A stretch of DNA of 32,000 nucleotides from Candidatus Atelocyanobacterium thalassa isolate ALOHA (GCF_000025125.1 NC_013771.1:1080001-1112000); one strand, 5' to 3'; counted from the stretch's first letter, positions 4,579 through 31,212 are shown. Numbers and translations: made by a program. The notes: generated from the letters alone by a model not told the origin.

Positions 4579-5433
4579 CTAAAGCAAATCCATAAAGTTT
4601 TTTTGCCAGGAACGAAAATAAATCCAGCCTAGCATCAATAAAATAATACCGTTCAAAAATGAATGTAAGACCAGTATCATATCAGGCAAAGATCCTGATA
4701 GAGATATTTGACGAATACTTTCAATAATTGGAATTAATGGATTAAAAAATAAAAAAGGTTTTACAGCAGACGGAACAATCTCTGCTGGATAAAAAACTGG
4801 AGAACTAATCCAAAGTACAAAACAAACCAATTCATAAAAGTAGGGTAAATCTCGGAAAAATACGTATAGTGCACTAACTAGAAATCCTATACCAGTACAC
4901 ACGAGACCCAGGGCTATAAGTGGAAGCAGAAGAGCTAATACATTTATAGGGTTTCTAGACATTATCAAAGTAACAATAGCTAATAATGGCAATGAACCTA
5001 CGATAAATTGAAATATATTAGCTACAATCATTGAAACTGGAAAAACTGTTACTGGAAGACGAACTTTGTTTAAAAGAGCTCCATTGCCTACTACACTAGT
5101 TAATGCTTGGCTAGTAGATGACGAGAAAAAATTAATAACAATTAAACCCGTAAAAGCAGCCAAAACATATCTAAGGGTGGAATCTTGATAGTATTCACTA
5201 AAAGCTGTTCCAAAGATCGCTGCATATAATCCTGTCATAATTAAAGGGTTCAGCAATGACCAGTAAACTCCTAAAAATGAGCCCCGATAACGCCCTTTTA
5301 AATTTCGTTCTACCAATATTTGTACTAGCTCTAGGTATCGTTTTGTTGACGATACATCTTTACCAAGCTTATTAATAATCTTACTAGAGATACTATCTCT
5401 GATATGGATTAGACCGGCTTTTAGCGATGTCAT
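4579..5433 (-). CDS. ABC-2 type transporter permease (Wzm/TagG-like)
   Basis: Polytopic hydrophobic protein of 284 aa, directly upstream of the ATPase in the same orientation. Confidence 0.8.
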   Translation of the reverse strand: MTSLKAGLIHIRDSISSKIINKLGKDVSSTKRYLELVQILVERNLKGRYRGSFLGVYWSLLNPLIMTGLYAAIFGTAFSEYYQDSTLRYVLAAFTGLIVINFFSSSTSQALTSVVGNGALLNKVRLPVTVFPVSMIVANIFQFIVGSLPLLAIVTLIMSRNPINVLALLLPLIALGLVCTGIGFLVSALYVFFRDLPYFYELVCFVLWISSPVFYPAEIVPSAVKPFLFFNPLIPIIESIRQISLSGSLPDMILVLHSFLNGIILLMLGWIYFRSWQKNFMDLL

Positions 5434-7750: not shown

Positions 7751-9391
7751 TTAACTAGGTTGAAAGCCTGAACCAACAGGAGCAACACTATCTAATTTTA
7801 GTTCTGGATGGTCTGTTATTACTTGCTGTAAGGCCCATTTGTTCTTAAATAATAAAACTGGTCTATCCCAACTATCTTTAACTGTAATAGCATTAAAGAC
7901 TCTATCTATTTTCTCTAAGGCTTTCCATCCATCCTTAACCCAGCGAGCCACCTCAAAAGGTATAGATTCTAGAGTTGTATCTACCCCATATTCACTTAAG
8001 ATTCTAAACTGTACTACTTCAAATTGTAGTCTTCCTACTGCTGCCAATATAGGGTCACGTTTAAAACCATCAGTAGAATGCATAATTTGAATTGCGCCTT
8101 CTTCTTTTAATTCATGAATTCCTTTTTGAAATTGCTTAAATTTAGAAGGGTTTAAATTTTTTAAATAAGAAAAAAATTCTGGAGAAAAGCAGGGAATCCC
8201 TTCATATTCTAATTTCTGTCCACTATAAATCGTATCTCCAATTGCGAACATCCCTGGATTATTTAAACCAATAACATCTCCACCAAAAGCTTCTTCAACA
8301 GAAGATCTATCTTGAGCAAACAATTTTTGAGGACGAGATAGGCGAATAGTTTTACCAGTTCTTGCATGGTTTACAATCATATCTTTTTGAAACTTTCCCG
8401 TACAGACTCTAATGAAAGCTACGCGATCACGATGTTTGGGATCCATATTAGCTTGCAGTTTAAAGATAAAACCACTGAATTCTGGATAAGTTGGATCAAC
8501 TATTCCAATAGATGAGTTGCGTCCATCAGGCTTTAAAGCATACTTTAAAAAAGCTTCTAGAAATGGTTGTACTCCAAAATTTGTCATGGCTGATCCAAAG
8601 AAAACAGGAGTCATGCCTCCTGAGTGAATCTTCTCTAGATCAAAATCATTTCCTAATTCTTCAAGTATCTCTAAACTATCCCTGAACTCTGAGTAAATTT
8701 CTGGTTCTATAGAACTTTTTAATTCTTCACTTTCTATTTCAAGATTTTTTACTTCTGCTTGTTGACTTCCATGAGCAGAACGTTTGAATAAGTTTATTAC
8801 TTTTTGAGAGCGATTATAAACTCCTTTAAAGCTATCACCAGTACCTATTGGCCAATTTACAACGTATGGCTTTAATCCTAATTCTTGTTCAATCTCATCC
8901 AATAGCTCTAAAGGATCACGTCCTGGACGATCCATTTTGTTTATAAAAGTAAAAATAGGAAGTTTTCGAAGACGACACACTTCAAAAAGCTTTTTTGTTT
9001 GAGTTTCTAATCCTTTTGCGGCATCAATAAGCATTACAGCATTATCAGCAGCTGCAAGAGTACGATAAGTATCTTCGCTAAAATCTTGGTGTCCTGGAGT
9101 ATCTAGCAAATTAATCTGAAAGCCTTGGTATTTAAACTGTAAAACAGTAGAAGTAATCGAAATACCACGCTGCTTTTCCATCTCCATCCAATCAGAAGTT
9201 ACTTTACGTTGATCACGTCTTGCTTTTACTGCACCTGCCTGATGTATGGCACCTCCATATAGTAATAACTTTTCAGTAAGTGTGGTTTTGCCTGCATCAG
9301 GATGAGAAATAATAGCAAAATTTCTTCTTACTTGAACAGCCTCTTGAATTTCTTGTTGTTTTTCATTAGTCATAGAAAACTTTTCGTACAT
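7751..9391 (-). CDS. prfC: peptide chain release factor 3
   Basis: GTPase motifs [30 protein letters not shown] and NKMD, plus the 546-aa length. The start could instead be the second Met at 9373. Confidence 0.92.
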
Positions 9392-9447
9392 TGATAATTA
9401 CTTCTATAAGTTATATCTAATTCTTCATTTATAAAACAGTTTTTATA

Positions 9448-9605
9448 AATACTGTAGTCTTTCTTATTTTAATACAATCAAAATATTCTTAAAATCTAAA
9501 AAATCTTTATAAAGTTTGTAAAGATTTTGCTAAAAATATAATTATCAAGAGTTTGTACCCCACTTTTAATATCGACTTTTTTGTATACTTTGCGCAGGTT
9601 TTTAT
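9448..9605. repeat. Outer inverted repeat, left copy (158 bp)
   Basis: Hand alignment shows it is the reverse complement of 11851-12008. There are 4 transition mismatches (left positions 9530, 9549, 9570, 9583) and no indels. Confidence 0.92.
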
Positions 9606-10007
9606 ATAGTATTTTAAAATTAGTTTGTTATTGTATTAACTATTTTTCTATCCTCTACAAGATTTATCTATCAAAAAAATATGCTTTTAGTATAACTTTT
9701 TTATTAACGTTTTTTCTTCTTTTTTCAGAGTCCACGTAATTAGCTTTAAGACATTATCGGGAGCCTTAGAATTAGGCGTAAAGTATCCTAAGCATTAGCT
9801 TTCTTTGATATACAAGTGCAATATATTGATTGTCTATATATTTTTAGTTATTTAAGTACCACAATAAGCCAATTAAGATTGATACATAAATATATTTTTA
9901 GATAGACTATTTTTCTTTATATATATTATTTTGAGGTTATATTTTTAAAATTTAGACTGTATTGCTAGGTAATAACACAGTCTAATAACTAGATTTAAAT
10001 ATAGTTA
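9606..10007. other. 402-bp AT-rich insert that splits the left repeat arm and is absent from the right arm
   Basis: The right arm is contiguous across the 11850/11851 junction. The left arm carries 402 extra bp with no ORF, iterated TAGACTRT motifs and two hairpins (9952-9985 and 9983-10010). Confidence 0.8.
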
Positions 10008-10189
10008 TTAGACTATACTTTAATATATATATTAATATTTATAAAAGTAGGTATTTTGAAAAATATGTACCCCAAAGATGGCGAAACCCTAGATGTTTAT
10101 GTAAAGAGATGTCGCCTTGCTTTAAAACTAACACAATCTGCAATGGCTAGAAAAATTAACATTAATACTCAGAGCTTAGGTAAAATTGA
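10008..10189. repeat. Inner inverted repeat, left copy (182 bp, perfect)
   Basis: Checked base by base as identical to the reverse complement of 11669-11850. It contains the upstream leader and the first 45 codons of the HTH gene. Confidence 0.95.
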
Positions 10190-10220
10190 ATTTGGATGTA
10201 AGGGTAACAATAGTATTTAG
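10056..10220 (+). pseudogene. Duplicated 5' fragment of the XRE-HTH gene (54 codons, truncated)
   Basis: It translates as MKNMYPKDGETLDVYVKRCRLALKLTQSAMARKININTQSLGKIE, identical to the full gene. It then diverges at the repeat boundary into FGCKGNNSI-stop. Confidence 0.7.
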
Positions 10221-10262
10221 CTTTTGTTCTAATGATTTATTTTTTATATTTATACGATATTC

Positions 10263-11213
10263 TTATAAATCTTGTTCTAGTAGATTACTAAGTTTTAATT
10301 GATCCTGGTTGCGATTATCATCGTAAATCATTAAGGTATTTAAATTCTTATGTCGCGATAATTTTTGCACTTTTCTGACATTTCCATTACTTTTATCTAA
10401 GGCAGTGGTAATTGATGAATGTCGAATTCTATGTGGTGAAATGCGTTTTTCAATTCCTGCCTTTTCACAATAACGGCGAACAATTTTGTATATCCCGTCT
10501 CCGCTAAGACGATTTCCTATGGATTTCGAGTCTAAAGAAGTAAATAGAGGTGTATATTTTTTGACTTCGTTACCCCGGTATACTAGCCAATACTTAATAG
10601 CTTCTACGCATTTAACAGATAAATCTATGGCATGCTTTTCGTTATATCCTTTTCCTTTTATCCATAGTTTACTGTTTGAATAATCGATATCATCTATATC
10701 TAATGCACTAATTTCGTTTCTTCGCAGTGCATTAGACCATAACAGCATCAATAAAGCTTTATCTCTTGTTCCTTTTATGGTTTTCAAATCACATACCATT
10801 AAAACCTTTTTAAACTCTTCTAAAGTGATTCCAGAAGTATCCCGAAAAGGCTTCGATCTTTCACTACCGACAACATCCTTAAGTGAATATTGGCATAGTC
10901 CTAAACGATGTGCTGCACAAACGAAAGATTTGATAACACTGATCTTTCGGTTAATAGTAGATGGAGCTAATTGTTTCTTCCTTAAGTAACCTTTATAAGC
11001 TATAAGAGCAGCATTTGCTTGAAAAGGCTTGATACTTAAAAATTCTTTTATCAATTCTTCTGTTACCGTTTTTTGCGACATAGATTCAAAGAAATAACAT
11101 AAATCTTTCTCATATTCATAACGAGTCATAGGAGATGATTTATCCAGTAGCCAAAGAGTAATTAATCTCTTAATAGATGATGTTTCTTGCTCTATATTTA
11201 TAAGTTTTAGCAT
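10263..11213 (-). CDS. tyrosine-type site-specific recombinase/integrase (XerC/XerD-like)
   Basis: SAM-like N-terminal domain. Catalytic set is present: ALRRNE (Arg), KGKG (Lys), HRIRHS (His-x-x-Arg-His) and SRHKNLNTLMIY (His..Tyr). ATG at 11213; the ORF extends to a TTG at 11234. Confidence 0.9.
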   Translation of the reverse strand: MLKLINIEQETSSIKRLITLWLLDKSSPMTRYEYEKDLCYFFESMSQKTVTEELIKEFLSIKPFQANAALIAYKGYLRKKQLAPSTINRKISVIKSFVCAAHRLGLCQYSLKDVVGSERSKPFRDTSGITLEEFKKVLMVCDLKTIKGTRDKALLMLLWSNALRRNEISALDIDDIDYSNSKLWIKGKGYNEKHAIDLSVKCVEAIKYWLVYRGNEVKKYTPLFTSLDSKSIGNRLSGDGIYKIVRRYCEKAGIEKRISPHRIRHSSITTALDKSNGNVRKVQKLSRHKNLNTLMIYDDNRNQDQLKLSNLLEQDL

Positions 11214-11241
11214 TATCAAGGGTTTTAGTATCAAGTTACTT

Positions 11242-11281
11242 AAAAGTGGTATCGAAAATTTTTATTTTCGATACCACTTTT
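11242..11281. promoter_or_regulatory. Perfect palindrome with 17-bp arms and a 6-nt spacer, between the HTH stop and the recombinase start
   Basis: aaaagtggtatcgaaaa / ttttta / ttttcgataccactttt. It may be an intrinsic terminator/attenuator, an operator, or a recombinase core-type site. Confidence 0.6.
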
Positions 11282-11343
11282 TCCAAAATAACACAATTTT
11301 AGAAGATAGAACTTCACAGAGCAAAAATGTTAGGCAGAAAAGA

Positions 11344-11802
11344 TCAATATGTTTTTTCTTGCTGCTGATTGTAAGGATGACCACAATAACCGCAAAAACG
11401 AAATTTTAGAGACGGTATAGGTTGTTCGCATTGCATACAACGATCTATCAGCGCAGAACCACATAAAAAACAATAGTTTGCGCGTTTGTCTAACCACATA
11501 GCTTCTAGACTATGTCCAGGAGACCAGCATTTAGGACAAATCTTGGGAGATTCTTCTGATGTGATTGCAACTCCTCTGCAAATAGAATCAATACAAGTTT
11601 CAGAAACATTGAGAATTTCAGCGAGCCCTAGTCTCGTTTTATGATTTAGCTTCTGTGTTTTTCCTGACTCAATTTTACCTAAGCTCTGAGTATTAATGTT
11701 AATTTTTCTAGCCATTGCAGATTGTGTTAGTTTTAAAGCAAGGCGACATCTCTTTACATAAACATCTAGGGTTTCGCCATCTTTGGGGTACATATTTTTC
11801 AA
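11344..11802 (-). CDS. XRE-family helix-turn-helix protein with a C-terminal double zinc ribbon (four CxxC)
   Basis: HTH segment LKLTQSAMARKININTQSLGKIESGK. Cysteine pairs CPKC, CFLC, CMQC and CGYC. TTG at 11802 or ATG at 11793. Confidence 0.8.
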   Translation of the reverse strand: MKNMYPKDGETLDVYVKRCRLALKLTQSAMARKININTQSLGKIESGKTQKLNHKTRLGLAEILNVSETCIDSICRGVAITSEESPKICPKCWSPGHSLEAMWLDKRANYCFLCGSALIDRCMQCEQPIPSLKFRFCGYCGHPYNQQQEKTY

Positions 11803-11850
11803 AATACCTACTTTTATAAATATTAATATATATATTAAAGTATAGTCTAA
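11669..11850. repeat. Inner inverted repeat, right copy (182 bp, perfect)
   Basis: Reverse complement of 10008-10189. It covers the 5' 134 nt of the functional HTH gene plus 48 nt upstream. Confidence 0.95.
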
Positions 11851-12008
11851 ATAAAAACCTGCGCAAAGTATATAAAAAAGTCGATGTTAAAAGTGGGGTA
11901 CAAACTTTTGATAATTATATTTTTAACAAAATCTTTACAAACTTTATAAAGATTTTTTAGATTTTAAGAATATTTTGATTGTATTAAAATAAGAAAGACT
12001 ACAGTATT
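11851..12008. repeat. Outer inverted repeat, right copy (158 bp)
   Basis: Reverse complement of 9448-9605 with 4 transitions, and contiguous with the inner repeat. Confidence 0.92.
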
Positions 12009-12075
12009 CGAATACATTAATTACTATCTTTAAAATATAAGTTTTAATATTTCTTGATTTTCAAAGAAATATAAT

Positions 12076-12103
12076 AAATATGAGGATGAAAGTCCTCATA
12101 TTT
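12076..12103 (-). terminator. chlP terminator hairpin
   Basis: aaatatgagga / tgaaag / tcctcatattt, a perfect 11-bp stem 15 nt downstream of the chlP stop. A T-rich tract follows on the minus strand. Confidence 0.65.
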
Positions 12104-12117
12104 ATTATTATTATTAA

Positions 12118-13338
12118 TTAAGGAGCTAAAGCATGACCTCGCAGTAAACTGCCAATAGTTTTAGCAGTTAGCTTCATCTGTACTAAAGGATTCATTGGAA
12201 CAACAGTTTTATACAAATAACTATCAAAAGTCATTCGTTGAGCATTTTTATCAGCACACATCTCGACAAAAGCTTCACGAGATGCATCAGAACGATAAAA
12301 AATATGCTGTAATATATCTAAAACTAAATAGGTAGTACCATACTGCTTATCCCAGCGTTTTAAATAAAGCTTTAAATCATCTTCAGTAGGAATGGTTCTA
12401 CCTGAATTACTGGTTTCAACAATTATTTCAGCACACATACGTGCCGACTTGGCCGCAAAATAAATTCCCTCCCCAGAAGATTTAGTAACAGTTCCTGCTG
12501 CATCACCAACTAGAGCGACGCGATTAACAACACGACGTGGTCGAGGATGTTCAGGGATCGGATGTGCTTCAACCTTTATCACTTCACCGCCTTCTAGCCT
12601 AGAAAATGCGCGACTGCGAATACCTGCCTGCAGCTTTTTGATCATAGCCTGGTTGTTTTTCATGGTTCCTGTTCCCACAGCCACATGATCATACTTTGGA
12701 AATATCCAAGCATAAAAATCAGGGGAAACGTCTTTTCCTACATACATTTCTGCTAAATCTTCATAGCGATTCATCTTATCTTTTGGTAGACGAATACGTT
12801 CTTGAAATGCAATAGCGTAATTATAATCTCCTGCATCTATAAATTTGGCGATACGGGAATTTGCACCATCTGCTCCGATAATTACATCAACTTGAAGAGT
12901 TTTTTTCTCTCCTAAAGCTTGACCATTTGAGTGATCAGCATAGTAGATAGTATAAGGATCTTGAGAATTTTGAGGAGTATCTAATTGATAAACTGTACCA
13001 TTTATTAAATTAGCACCTAATTCAACAGCTCTATCGCGCAAAAAACCATCAAGAATTTCTCTACGACACATCCCTATATATTCGTCTTTATTGTCCAAAT
13101 TTAAGTCGACTTCAATATTTGATGGAGATATCATTTTCATCTTCCGGACTCGCCTATCAATAATTGTAGGTGGAAGCTCAAATTCATCAACCATACATAA
13201 AGGAATAGCTCCTCCACAAGGTTTGACGTAGCTCAGATTGCGCTCAAATAAATAAGTTTCGATACCGGCTTTTACCAATGTCTCAGCAGCAGAAGATCCG
13301 GCTGGACCTGATCCAACGACAGCAACGCGTAAAACCAA
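12118..13338 (-). CDS. chlP: geranylgeranyl diphosphate/geranylgeranyl-chlorophyll reductase
   Basis: VLRVAVVGSGPAGSSAAETLVKAGIETYLFER and near full-length similarity to cyanobacterial ChlP. The likely start is the TTG at 13338, preceded by GAGGAG; the ORF track extends to 13359. Confidence 0.92.
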   Translation of the reverse strand: MVLRVAVVGSGPAGSSAAETLVKAGIETYLFERNLSYVKPCGGAIPLCMVDEFELPPTIIDRRVRKMKMISPSNIEVDLNLDNKDEYIGMCRREILDGFLRDRAVELGANLINGTVYQLDTPQNSQDPYTIYYADHSNGQALGEKKTLQVDVIIGADGANSRIAKFIDAGDYNYAIAFQERIRLPKDKMNRYEDLAEMYVGKDVSPDFYAWIFPKYDHVAVGTGTMKNNQAMIKKLQAGIRSRAFSRLEGGEVIKVEAHPIPEHPRPRRVVNRVALVGDAAGTVTKSSGEGIYFAAKSARMCAEIIVETSNSGRTIPTEDDLKLYLKRWDKQYGTTYLVLDILQHIFYRSDASREAFVEMCADKNAQRMTFDSYLYKTVVPMNPLVQMKLTAKTIGSLLRGHALAP

Positions 13339-29599: not shown

Positions 29600-29673
29600 G
29601 GGACTGTAGTTCAACTGGTTAGAGCACCGCCCTGTCACGGCGGAAGTTGCGGGTTCGAATCCCGTCAGTCCCG
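29600..29673 (+). tRNA. tRNA-Asp (GTC)
   Basis: Manually folded cloverleaf: acceptor gggactg/cagtccc, anticodon loop ctGTCac, T arm gcggg-ttcgaat-cccgt, discriminator G. No encoded CCA. Confidence 0.92.
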
Positions 29674-29736
29674 CTAAGTATCCAGAATTTGTATATACCC
29701 ATACAACATAAACTTATTTCAATGCATTTTTTTATT

Positions 29737-29809
29737 GGGGAATTAGCTCAGTTGGTAGAGTGCTGCGATCGCACCGCAGAGGCCAGGAGTTCGAATCTCC
29801 TATTCTCCA
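29737..29809 (+). tRNA. tRNA-Ala (CGC)
   Basis: Cloverleaf with acceptor ggggaat/attctcc, including the G3:U70 alanine identity pair. Anticodon loop atCGCac, T arm aggag-ttcgaat-ctcct. No encoded CCA. Confidence 0.9.
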
Positions 29810-31212
29810 TCATAATTATTCTCCATGTTCATATCATCGCAATCTCCTGAACTATTGGCATTTTTCCCCAAAATATCGTAGTTGCTAGAAGGTTTTCTTT
29901 GAATATGAATTTGTCTTAAACGTGGGCCTTCAGACTTAACGATAGTAAATAATAAATTGTCATACTTTAATATTTCTCCCTGCATAGGTATCTTTTGCCA
30001 CTGATATGATAAAAAACCTCCCAATGTTTGATATTCATCTATCAAAGGTAAGTTTAAACCTAATACATTATTGAGCTCTTCTAAATTTAATTGAGCCTCT
30101 ATTAAAAAATTATTTTCATCAATTATTTTTAATATTTCCTTTTTTTCAGTTATATCTTCTGAATCATTACCTAGGATTTCTCCAATTACATCTTGTATTG
30201 TAATTAGCCCAGATGTTCCTCCAAATTCATCTACTATAATTACCATTTTTAGTTGTGATCTCTGCATTAAAGATAATAATTCATCAAGAGGCATTGATTC
30301 AGAGACAAACTTTACTGGTTTAACCCAAGCGCATAGAAAAGAGTTTGAACTCAACTCCCCCTGAGCTAAAGGTTCGGCAAGATCTTTGAAATCAATAATA
30401 CCTAGAATATCATCAAGAGAATCACCTTTAATTGGGTAGCGAGAATGTCCAGTTTTAGTTACTTCTTCCAATAATTCTTCAAAAGTAGTAGTTTCTGAAA
30501 CAGCAATTAATTGAGTACGAGGAACCATAACTTCCATTGTCGTAACTGTACCAAACTCAAATATATTTTTAAGCAGAGCTCTCTCTTGAGCTTCTAGACC
30601 TGTTGATTCTCCTTCTGTAGATATGATTAATTGTAATTCTTCAGGAGTAACCTGACTGTACCTTTCTTGCCCCGTATACTGAATTCCAATGCTGCGTAAT
30701 AAAAAACGTGTCGATTGATTTAAAATCCAAATAAAAGGATTAAATATCTGTGATATAACTCTAATTGAAGGTCCTAAGAATCTAGCTAGTTGTTCCGAGT
30801 ACAACAAGGATAATGATTTAGGGCATAATTCTCCTAAAACAATCTGTAAATACGCCAAAAACAGAAAAGCACAAGGTATAGCAATGCTATGAGATAGGCT
30901 TATACTAACAAATCTCGGCAATGGTGATTTTGTTAAGACTTCTATCACTAACTTGGCCATAACACTTTCTCCAACCCAGCCTAGGGCCAAACTGGATAGT
31001 GTTATGCCTAACTGTGTCGTTGAAAGCAAGCGATCAAGACTACGCTGCAAAGATTGAACTGTTTGAGCTTGAATATCTCCAGCCTTAACTAACTGACTAA
31101 TCCTTGATCTCCTAACCGAAACCATCGCAAATTCTGCAGTAACAAAAAATGCATTAATGGCTATAAGGAAAAAAACTGATAAAACCCGTATTAAAATATC
31201 TGAAGTTGACAT
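29800..31212 (-). CDS. CNNM/HlyC-CorC family transporter (DUF21 + CBS pair + CorC_HlyC domain)
   Basis: N-terminal 4-TM DUF21 region, tandem CBS region and a C-terminal CorC domain, followed by a roughly 35-aa unconserved tail. The stop codon lies inside the tRNA-Ala 3' end. Confidence 0.87.
   Translation of the reverse strand: MSTSDILIRVLSVFFLIAINAFFVTAEFAMVSVRRSRISQLVKAGDIQAQTVQSLQRSLDRLLSTTQLGITLSSLALGWVGESVMAKLVIEVLTKSPLPRFVSISLSHSIAIPCAFLFLAYLQIVLGELCPKSLSLLYSEQLARFLGPSIRVISQIFNPFIWILNQSTRFLLRSIGIQYTGQERYSQVTPEELQLIISTEGESTGLEAQERALLKNIFEFGTVTTMEVMVPRTQLIAVSETTTFEELLEEVTKTGHSRYPIKGDSLDDILGIIDFKDLAEPLAQGELSSNSFLCAWVKPVKFVSESMPLDELLSLMQRSQLKMVIIVDEFGGTSGLITIQDVIGEILGNDSEDITEKKEILKIIDENNFLIEAQLNLEELNNVLGLNLPLIDEYQTLGGFLSYQWQKIPMQGEILKYDNLLFTIVKSEGPRLRQIHIQRKPSSNYDILGKNANSSGDCDDMNMENNYDGE

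Follow-up and report, generated by a model that had tools for sequence, protein, structure and literature searches.

In the yeast 2-micron plasmid, the FLP gene lies in a unique region between 599-bp inverted repeats, and the FRT sites lie within these repeats. In the resolution modules of the Tn3 family that rely on a tyrosine recombinase (TnpI/IRS, TnpS-TnpT), the res site is located directly upstream of the recombinase gene. The UCYN-A lineage includes the nitroplast, the first described nitrogen-fixing organelle, and its 1.44-Mb genome (1,443,806 bp in isolate ALOHA) is regarded as streamlined and static; two rRNA-operon inverted repeats were reportedly described in this chromosome by Tripp and colleagues in 2010. 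In single-recombinase Xer systems (XerS/difSL, XerH/difH and archaeal XerA/dif), the dif site adjoins the recombinase gene (PMC5357621). The present analysis concerns a stretch of 32,000 nucleotides of Candidatus Atelocyanobacterium thalassa isolate ALOHA (NC_013771.1:1080001-1112000, GCF_000025125.1; hereafter the window), in which a two-gene cassette, encoding an Xer-like tyrosine recombinase and an XRE helix-turn-helix (HTH)/zinc-ribbon protein, is enclosed by long inverted arms between prfC and chlP. On balance, we favour the reading that this locus is an old inverted duplication whose core flip-flops by RecA-type recombination around a plasmid-derived Xer/dif-like module, and not a site-specific switch.

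Arms, haplotypes and orientations

The left arm of the cassette (9448..10189, + strand, 742 bp) comprises, from its outer to its inner end, an upstream region, a promoter region and codons 1-44 of the HTH gene. Its counterpart on the right side of the reference (11669..12008, - strand, 340 bp) corresponds to the left arm minus a 402-bp stretch (9606..10007). Direct comparison confirmed the match initially claimed for these arms: 10008-10189 and the reverse complement of 11669-11850 are identical (182/182), whereas 9448-9605 and the reverse complement of 11851-12008 share 154 of 158 positions without any indel, the four mismatches (9530, 9549, 9570 and 9583) all being transitions. Taken together, the two reference arms are 336/340 identical. 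A repeat search of the window returned the same two arm pairs, and the longest exact inverted repeat found in 50 shuffles of 8500-13000 was 20 nt, compared to the 182 nt observed. The outer ends are sharp, since AATACTGTAG begins at 9448 and at 12008 and the adjoining flanks are unrelated; no direct repeats were found at the ends, in agreement with the reported lack of target-site duplication. The inner ends fall within the HTH gene, past codon 44 (counting from the TTG at 10056).

To collect arms from natural populations, public assemblies were searched for exact matches to the full HTH protein and to the truncated open reading frame (ORF) found at the other end of the core, which provided 20 complete flank-to-core arms. 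The 402-bp stretch is present, beside prfC and beside chlP, in 19/19 wild UCYN-A1 flank-to-core arms; therefore, the natural UCYN-A1 arms are about 742-745 bp long on both sides. The right arm of the reference is the sole arm lacking this stretch among the 21 examined. We therefore interpret the difference not as an insertion but as sequence missing from the reference right arm, through deletion or assembly loss, and the 340-bp arms with an insertion of the preliminary description have to be replaced by 742-bp arms with a deletion in the reference. An origin of the stretch as a miniature inverted-repeat transposable element or another insertion was rejected, as it has no other copy in the window and is present in both arms of all wild contigs. 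No clean microhomology was found at its ends. Since the ALOHA genome comes from a sorted natural population, the loss could be a rare variant or an assembly artefact.

The same cassette lies between prfC and chlP in UCYN-A1 and UCYN-A2, and beside chlP in the contig of a third UCYN-A-like lineage (recombinase about 80% identical). In the UCYN-A2 assembly SIO64986, two contig ends with a 190-nt overlap rebuild this locus, with arms that are 856/856 identical as assembled; in the third lineage, the repeat extends over at least 196 nt at 100% identity and is ended by the contig end. By contrast, an alignment of A1 with A2 arms is possible only for the inner 178 nt (78.7% identity). In a multiple alignment, the outermost 35-45 nt or so look homologous in the three lineages at both flanks. 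The inner boundary of the repeat also varies: the A1 arms include 44 HTH codons, those of A2 about 73 and those of the third lineage about 77. Near-identity within each genome combined with deep divergence between lineages, which is the pattern of concerted evolution known from plastid-type inverted repeats, indicates that the arms keep converting each other. As judged from these alignments, the inverted duplication is old and evolves in concert, an outcome that site-specific exchange cannot produce.

All four types of junctions were found among the 20 complete UCYN-A1 arms (prfC-full, n = 6; prfC-truncated, n = 5; chlP-truncated, n = 5; chlP-full, n = 4), and A2-like contigs carry both prfC-full (L153, L154) and chlP-full (L155) junctions. 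The locus thus has the two isomers expected of a recombinase gene located between long inverted repeats as in the FLP/2-micron system, with the caveat that the phase is taken from short reads: all four junction sequences exist in either orientation, and an assembler cannot phase identical arms. The natural UCYN-A1 arms belong to at least three haplotypes. About 16 sites, never more than 136 nt apart, distinguish H1 from haplotype H4, which was restricted to the truncated side, and just 101 identical nt lie between the flank and the first of these sites; the reference "transitions" 9549A and 9583A are alleles of H4, a common haplotype. H4 arms adjoin prfC in two contigs (L164 and the k141 contig L162) and chlP in two others (L167 and L169); likewise, complete H1 arms with the full end adjoin both flanks. 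The occurrence of the four junction types and of these phaseable H4 arms in public contigs supports the invertibility proposed in the preliminary description. Furthermore, since concerted evolution shows that the arms recombine and since crossovers between inverted repeats invert, inversion in nature is probable, judging from the assembled sequences.

The self-symmetry noticed at the outset is also a property of the locus. Both arms supply the same promoter region and the same 5′ codons, so that the full gene, the truncated gene and the downstream recombinase gene come out the same whichever way the core points, i.e., with the same HTH-recombinase operon. Since the same genes are rebuilt either way, the orientations do not differ in expression or products as those of a phase-variation switch do. 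What the flip changes is the direction of any read-through, which would enter prfC in sense in the reference state and chlP in antisense after inversion, and the polarity of the core palindrome described below relative to the chromosome; no evidence was found that either of these matters.

Two features of the arm itself should be mentioned. The motif TAGACTAT...TATATATATTA occurs twice in direct order (9903-9928 and 10009-10034, 81% identical), and a short hairpin formed by the motif TAGACTGT/ACAGTCTA immediately precedes the HTH promoter region (arm region 9952-10014). The HTH protein could use these direct repeats (9903-10034) and the hairpin motif as operators. Several of the switches between haplotypes occur close by, at 9868-9917.

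The full-length HTH copy of five independent wild A2-like contigs (L153, around position 4812, and L154-L157) has A5 instead of A6 around codon 32; this frameshift, at position 731 of the 856-bp A2 arm, leads to a 43-aa HTH product. The A6 is retained in the truncated-side arm of L155 and L156, the two contigs reaching this position, and in both arms of SIO64986. One complete A2-type genome (B. bigelowii endosymbiont; Suzuki et al. 2021) was reported to be devoid of xerD (PMC8679911). The recombinase is present in SIO64986 and in ten A2-type metagenome contigs, always on contigs ending in or near the arms. A true loss or a repeat-induced assembly gap would explain the reported lack of xerD, which, together with the frameshift, suggests that the cassette is dispensable or eroding in A2-type genomes.

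Candidate site of the recombinase and probable mechanism of the inversion

The recombinase gene (10263..11213, - strand) encodes a 316-aa protein (ADB95635.1 / WP_012954322.1) matching the Pfam families Phage_integrase (9e-29) and Phage_int_SAM_1 (1e-4; N-terminal SAM-like core-binding domain). In 26 homologues, its residues R150, K188, H261, R264, H288 and Y297 are either invariant or conserved to at least 90%, so that the enzyme, described earlier as apparently intact, has both the R-K-H-R-H/W-Y catalytic domain and the N-terminal SAM-like domain of the tyrosine recombinase superfamily. The closest solved structures (best PDB matches) are those of XerA, XerD and XerH; however, the protein is not a canonical XerC, XerD or XerS, as it falls below the corresponding NCBIfam equivalog cut-offs (124.6/335, 111.4/330 and 60.3/267 bits, respectively). 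Across the three lineages, its ratio of nonsynonymous to synonymous substitution rates (dN/dS) is 0.09-0.12, with a dS of 0.81-1.01. The values are 0.13-0.17 (dS 0.82-1.35) for the HTH/zinc-ribbon gene, 0.05 (dS 0.80) for prfC and 0.04 (dS 0.68) for chlP; the dS of the cassette genes (0.8-1.35) is thus similar to or above that of their neighbours (0.68-0.80). Judging from these rates, both cassette genes are functional, under purifying selection and vertically inherited, and the cassette is not a decaying scar.

A 28-bp dif-like palindrome (11248..11275), GGTATCGAAAA-TTTTTA-TTTTCGATACC (11-6-11), precedes the start of the recombinase gene by about 35 nt and is the candidate cognate site of the enzyme. 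It belongs to a perfect 17-nt stem spanning 11242-11281, and its hairpin folds at -18.4 kcal/mol (z = -9.6). The palindrome occurs once in the 32-kb window, in the unique core (0.01 expected by chance), and the arms contain no half-site, even when 3 mismatches in 13 are allowed. Its two arms, GGTATCGAAAA and TTTTCGATACC, are conserved whereas the 6-bp spacer is variable in A1, A2, the third lineage and seven Crocosphaera-type loci, whose recombinases are 67-69% identical to that of UCYN-A. In all, the palindrome (at most 4 mismatches) is found at 37 of 81 homologue loci, mostly with recombinases that are only 47-52% identical, compared to just 3 sites matching the same pattern in 885 kb elsewhere in those loci. 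It has the format of single-recombinase Xer/dif systems, i.e., a site of about 28-31 bp made of two arms of about 11 bp and a 6-11-bp centre, beside the recombinase gene. If this palindrome is the site of the enzyme, the window offers one substrate and not two inverted ones. No non-coding motif common to the arms and to the surroundings of the Crocosphaera homologues was found; only the core palindrome matched.

The spacer (11259-11264) is found in both orientations within one lineage, which looks like recurrent hairpin-loop inversion. Among the UCYN-A1 sequences, ALOHA, L088, L142, L163 and L170 carry TAAAAA (gene sense) and 15 contigs carry its exact reverse complement, TTTTTA; of the third-lineage contigs, L002 and L004 have TTTTTA and L003 has TAAAAA. 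The A2 spacers, TAAATC (3 loci) or TATTCA (7 contigs), are not simple complements. The hypothesis of a spacer orientation tracking that of the cassette was rejected, as no correspondence appeared. The GC skew, looked at for a replication terminus, follows only the gene strand in the 32-kb window.

According to the mechanism that we favour, the arms would recombine by the general homologous recombination of the cell, presumably in a RecA-dependent way. Non-crossover events would keep the arms near-identical, and crossover events would flip the core and generate both orientations in natural populations. As either orientation yields the same operon, the flip would probably be close to neutral. 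The recombinase would most likely not catalyse this flip and would plausibly act on the single palindrome located upstream of its own gene. Recombinase and palindrome would then constitute a resolution module, Xer/dif-like or plasmid res-like, inherited from a Crocosphaera-type plasmid or integrative element and kept by purifying selection. The recA, recFOR and ruvABC genes have been reported in UCYN-A (PMC5101192). The arms are mosaics of haplotypes, the reference left arm being H1 in its outer part and H4 in its inner part. A four-gamete test (Hudson-Kaplan) on the 20 arms calls for a minimum of 8 exchange intervals, distributed all the way from flank to core end, although metagenome contigs can be chimeric. 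Such spread exchange points are those of a repeat maintained by homologous recombination.

Several points weigh against this mechanism. It makes a coincidence of the presence of an intact and selected recombinase inside an invertible segment, in a genome that has lost almost all genes of this kind. Complete H4 arms at both flanks require exchange within the outermost 101 nt, and the outermost block is the only non-coding part of the arm still alignable between lineages; a hot spot or a site that escaped recognition may lie within these 101 nt. The palindrome may simply be an operator or a terminator. The 100% identity of the A2 arms could partly reflect repeat collapse in the assembly. Several contigs stop like an unresolved repeat, L158-L161 consisting of the core alone, and some orientation calls and mosaics could be assembly chimeras of co-occurring strains, the contigs being built from short reads.

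The alternative that survives best is an inversion catalysed by the recombinase itself at one site per arm, as in the FLP/2-micron system, perhaps with the help or under the control of the XRE/zinc-ribbon protein. The location of an intact recombinase under purifying selection inside the invertible segment is what it would predict, and the presence beside both flanks of H4 (truncated end) and of H1 (full end) arms implies the exchanges in the outermost 101 nt that it requires, within the sole non-coding arm sequence alignable in the three lineages. The XRE/zinc-ribbon family also adjoins tyrosine recombinases in free-living cyanobacteria, but the partners compared share just 24-28% identity with the UCYN-A enzyme in the aligned part. 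The outer block contains an imperfect 11-7-11 palindrome (9500-9528), which was rejected as a core site since it is not conserved in A2 or in the third lineage. Whereas FLP has a target site within each repeat, the arms lack both the 28-bp family-conserved site and its half-sites. Furthermore, the exchange intervals are spread over the whole arm, the inner boundary of the repeat differs between lineages, and site-specific exchange cannot hold 742-856 bp identical, so that homologous recombination between the arms would be needed anyway. We consider catalysis by the recombinase rather unlikely; of the flip system originally proposed, the geometry and the isomers stand and the FLP/2-micron mechanism is not supported, the family site and half-sites being absent from the arms. 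It seems still more doubtful that the locus is a programmed recombinase-driven switch, regulated by the XRE/zinc-ribbon protein, acting at the conserved outer arm block and retained by a nascent organelle genome since before the sublineage split. If true, such a switch would reverse the polarity of the dif-like site or toggle read-through (sense prfC / antisense chlP), and a plasmid-derived recombinase module would have become a maintenance or regulatory function of the nitroplast chromosome.

It is also quite improbable that the locus is a fixed rearrangement scar, i.e., that a single old inverted duplication, with one constant orientation per strain, appears in mixed orientations as an artefact of short-read assemblers. 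This explanation draws on the impossibility of phasing identical arms whose four junction k-mers exist in either orientation, on near 1:1:1:1 junction counts, which are the expectation of random path choice, and on the many contigs that break in or at the arms; only the ALOHA reference, with its differing arms, is phased with some safety. However, differing arms can be phased by the H1/H4 sites and place H4 next to prfC and next to chlP. The reference left arm is an H1/H4 mosaic of the kind that a crossover produces, and concerted evolution proves recombination between the arms, whose crossovers, as these are inverted repeats, necessarily invert.

Finally, a mobile element with long terminal inverted repeats, moved as a unit by its own tyrosine recombinase, could be evoked from the sharp outer ends and from the association of both gene families with plasmids and transposons in free-living cyanobacteria, but is highly implausible given the insertion point shared by A1 and A2, between prfC and chlP (with the cassette beside chlP in the third lineage's contig), the dS of the cassette, similar to or above that of its neighbours, the lack of target-site duplication and of a second copy in the window, and the presence of prfC or chlP on every public contig bearing a flank. 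The statement that the cassette is neither a prophage nor an insertion sequence holds, as it has no att repeats or duplication, only two genes and a constant position; the same applies to an integrative and conjugative element.

Gene content of the locus and probable origin of the cassette

The core located between the arms (1.48 kb) contains the 3′ two thirds of the HTH gene, the palindrome and the recombinase gene, and the whole cassette carries only two genes, without any transposase or phage gene; ORF calls thus agree with the gene content described initially. The full-length gene encoding the XRE HTH and double-zinc-ribbon protein (11344..11793, - strand; 149 aa, ADB95636.1) has its first 125 nt (from the ATG) in the right arm. 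The truncated 5′ copy (10065..10220, + strand) encodes 51 aa from its ATG, the HTH domain being cut after about 32 of 55 profile positions; the same truncated ORF is called on 23 public contigs, and the truncated copy of UCYN-A2 encodes 87 aa. The unique tail at the truncated end of the core (10190..10262) exists as two population variants, 100% and 91% identical to the window.

Both neighbours are the core genes announced in the preliminary description, as indicated by their ORFs and Pfam families. On the left, prfC (7751..9391, - strand) encodes release factor 3 (GTP_EFTU and RF3_C matches on the identical protein), with the same flank in wild contigs; on the right, chlP (12118..13338, - strand) encodes geranylgeranyl reductase (FAD_binding_3 and GGR_cat matches on orthologues). 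A hairpin that is terminator-like on both strands (12071..12108) lies between the right arm and chlP, outside the repeat. A search for tRNA or other non-coding RNA genes as attachment sites gave no Rfam match near the locus, the only tRNAs of the window being located at 29600-29811.

The nearest relatives of the recombinase are found in Crocosphaera, and its family is carried by 124 PLSDB plasmids of cyanobacteria, usually with one copy each; the HTH/zinc-ribbon family is carried by 57 plasmids. The search for the same gene pair in other genomes recovered it with its arms in A2 and in the third lineage but not elsewhere, as none of 80 recombinase-homologue loci (0/80) has the HTH gene nearby. 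No long inverted repeats were found at the nearest recombinase-homologue loci examined. In five of the five HTH-family loci examined (Nostoc commune HK-02 plasmid8, L151; Acaryochloris pREB4, L152; a Gloeothece PCC 7424 plasmid, L148; L149 and L145), the HTH/zinc-ribbon gene is divergent beside a different tyrosine recombinase (about 256-304 aa); the identity of 24-28% given above comes from the comparison of two of these enzymes. Two of these five loci lie beside a Tn3-family transposase, and no long inverted repeats were found at the HTH-family/tyrosine-recombinase loci. The UCYN-A cassette looks like a remnant of plasmid or transposon maintenance functions that was fixed between core genes before the sublineage split.

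Some observations made on these relatives deserve mention. The divergent HTH-recombinase pair may represent an undescribed type of transposon or plasmid resolution module. In Crocosphaera strain WH 8501, the recombinase homologue is located beside genes resembling those of a primase-polymerase and of a VirB4-type ATPase, according to a by-eye reading of translations. The Rhopalodia gibba endosymbiont, which also fixes nitrogen, has a plasmid of 6,464 bp (CP067996.1, L014) with a 62%-identical homologue and with ORFs that, by eye, look feoA/feoB-like and MIP-channel-like; at position 2167 of this plasmid, away from the recombinase gene, lies a palindrome of this type. Contigs with Crocosphaera-type or cyanobacterial homologues were also found in metagenome-assembled genomes named Crocinitomicaceae, Gracilibacteria and Sediminibacterium (L013, JAKVAR010000106.1; L022; L054), probably as a result of binning errors.

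Significance and comparison with known systems

The concerted evolution, mosaic arms and structural isomers of this locus indicate that the UCYN-A chromosome is still in active homologous recombination. The locus also provides a plasmid-type recombinase retained under selection, with its own candidate site, across UCYN-A sublineages. Beyond UCYN-A, GNTATCGRAAA-N6-TTWTCRATANC is a candidate cognate site for a recombinase family present on >100 cyanobacterial plasmids. If the palindrome is dif-like, it would offer a handle on the resolution and segregation of a polyploid, organelle-like chromosome. Public assemblies break or choose arbitrarily at this locus, which may underlie the reported lack of xerD (PMC8679911). 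The preliminary description knew of no cyanobacterial system with such an architecture, and nothing describing this locus turned up in the searchable literature.

Among systems in which a tyrosine recombinase lies near an invertible segment, phase-variation invertases and shufflons (FimB/FimE, hsdS inverting loci) resemble the UCYN-A locus; hsdS systems also have inverted repeats inside coding sequences and truncated gene copies. However, these phase-variation systems swap promoters or gene ends, whereas the UCYN-A locus has one 3′ end and two identical 5′ ends and gives the same products. The Tn3-family resolution modules have their res site directly upstream of the recombinase gene, where the candidate site of UCYN-A also lies; unlike them, UCYN-A has no transposase at this locus and its gene pair is in tandem instead of divergent. 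The 2-micron plasmid shares a recombinase gene in a unique region between long inverted repeats and two isomers. It differs in that the candidate site of UCYN-A is single and outside the arms, and that a chromosomal locus could not plausibly serve in copy-number amplification.

The module formed by the recombinase and the palindrome resembles Xer/dif modules, with one Xer-like enzyme and an adjoining 28-bp site made of two inverted 11-bp arms and a 6-bp centre. Its half-site GGTATCGAAAA resembles those of difH (AGTTATGAAAA) and difSL (TTTCCGAAAA) (PMC5357621). It differs from these modules by a recombinase far below the XerC/XerD/XerS cut-offs, belonging to a mainly plasmid-borne family, and by the perfect symmetry of the arms of its site. 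As for the repeat, it resembles plastid-type inverted repeats: both are long, near-identical repeats kept by gene conversion, with a core in both orientations and equivalent isomers, and both would be driven by general homologous recombination, as far as can be deduced for UCYN-A. Unlike plastid repeats, the UCYN-A locus is far smaller (1.5-kb core, 0.74-0.86-kb arms), its arms cut a coding gene, leaving a truncated copy, and its core encodes a recombinase. Overall, the locus is best filed as an inverted repeat maintained by homologous recombination, with isomers, around an Xer/dif-like module, and not as an FLP-like or phase-variation switch.

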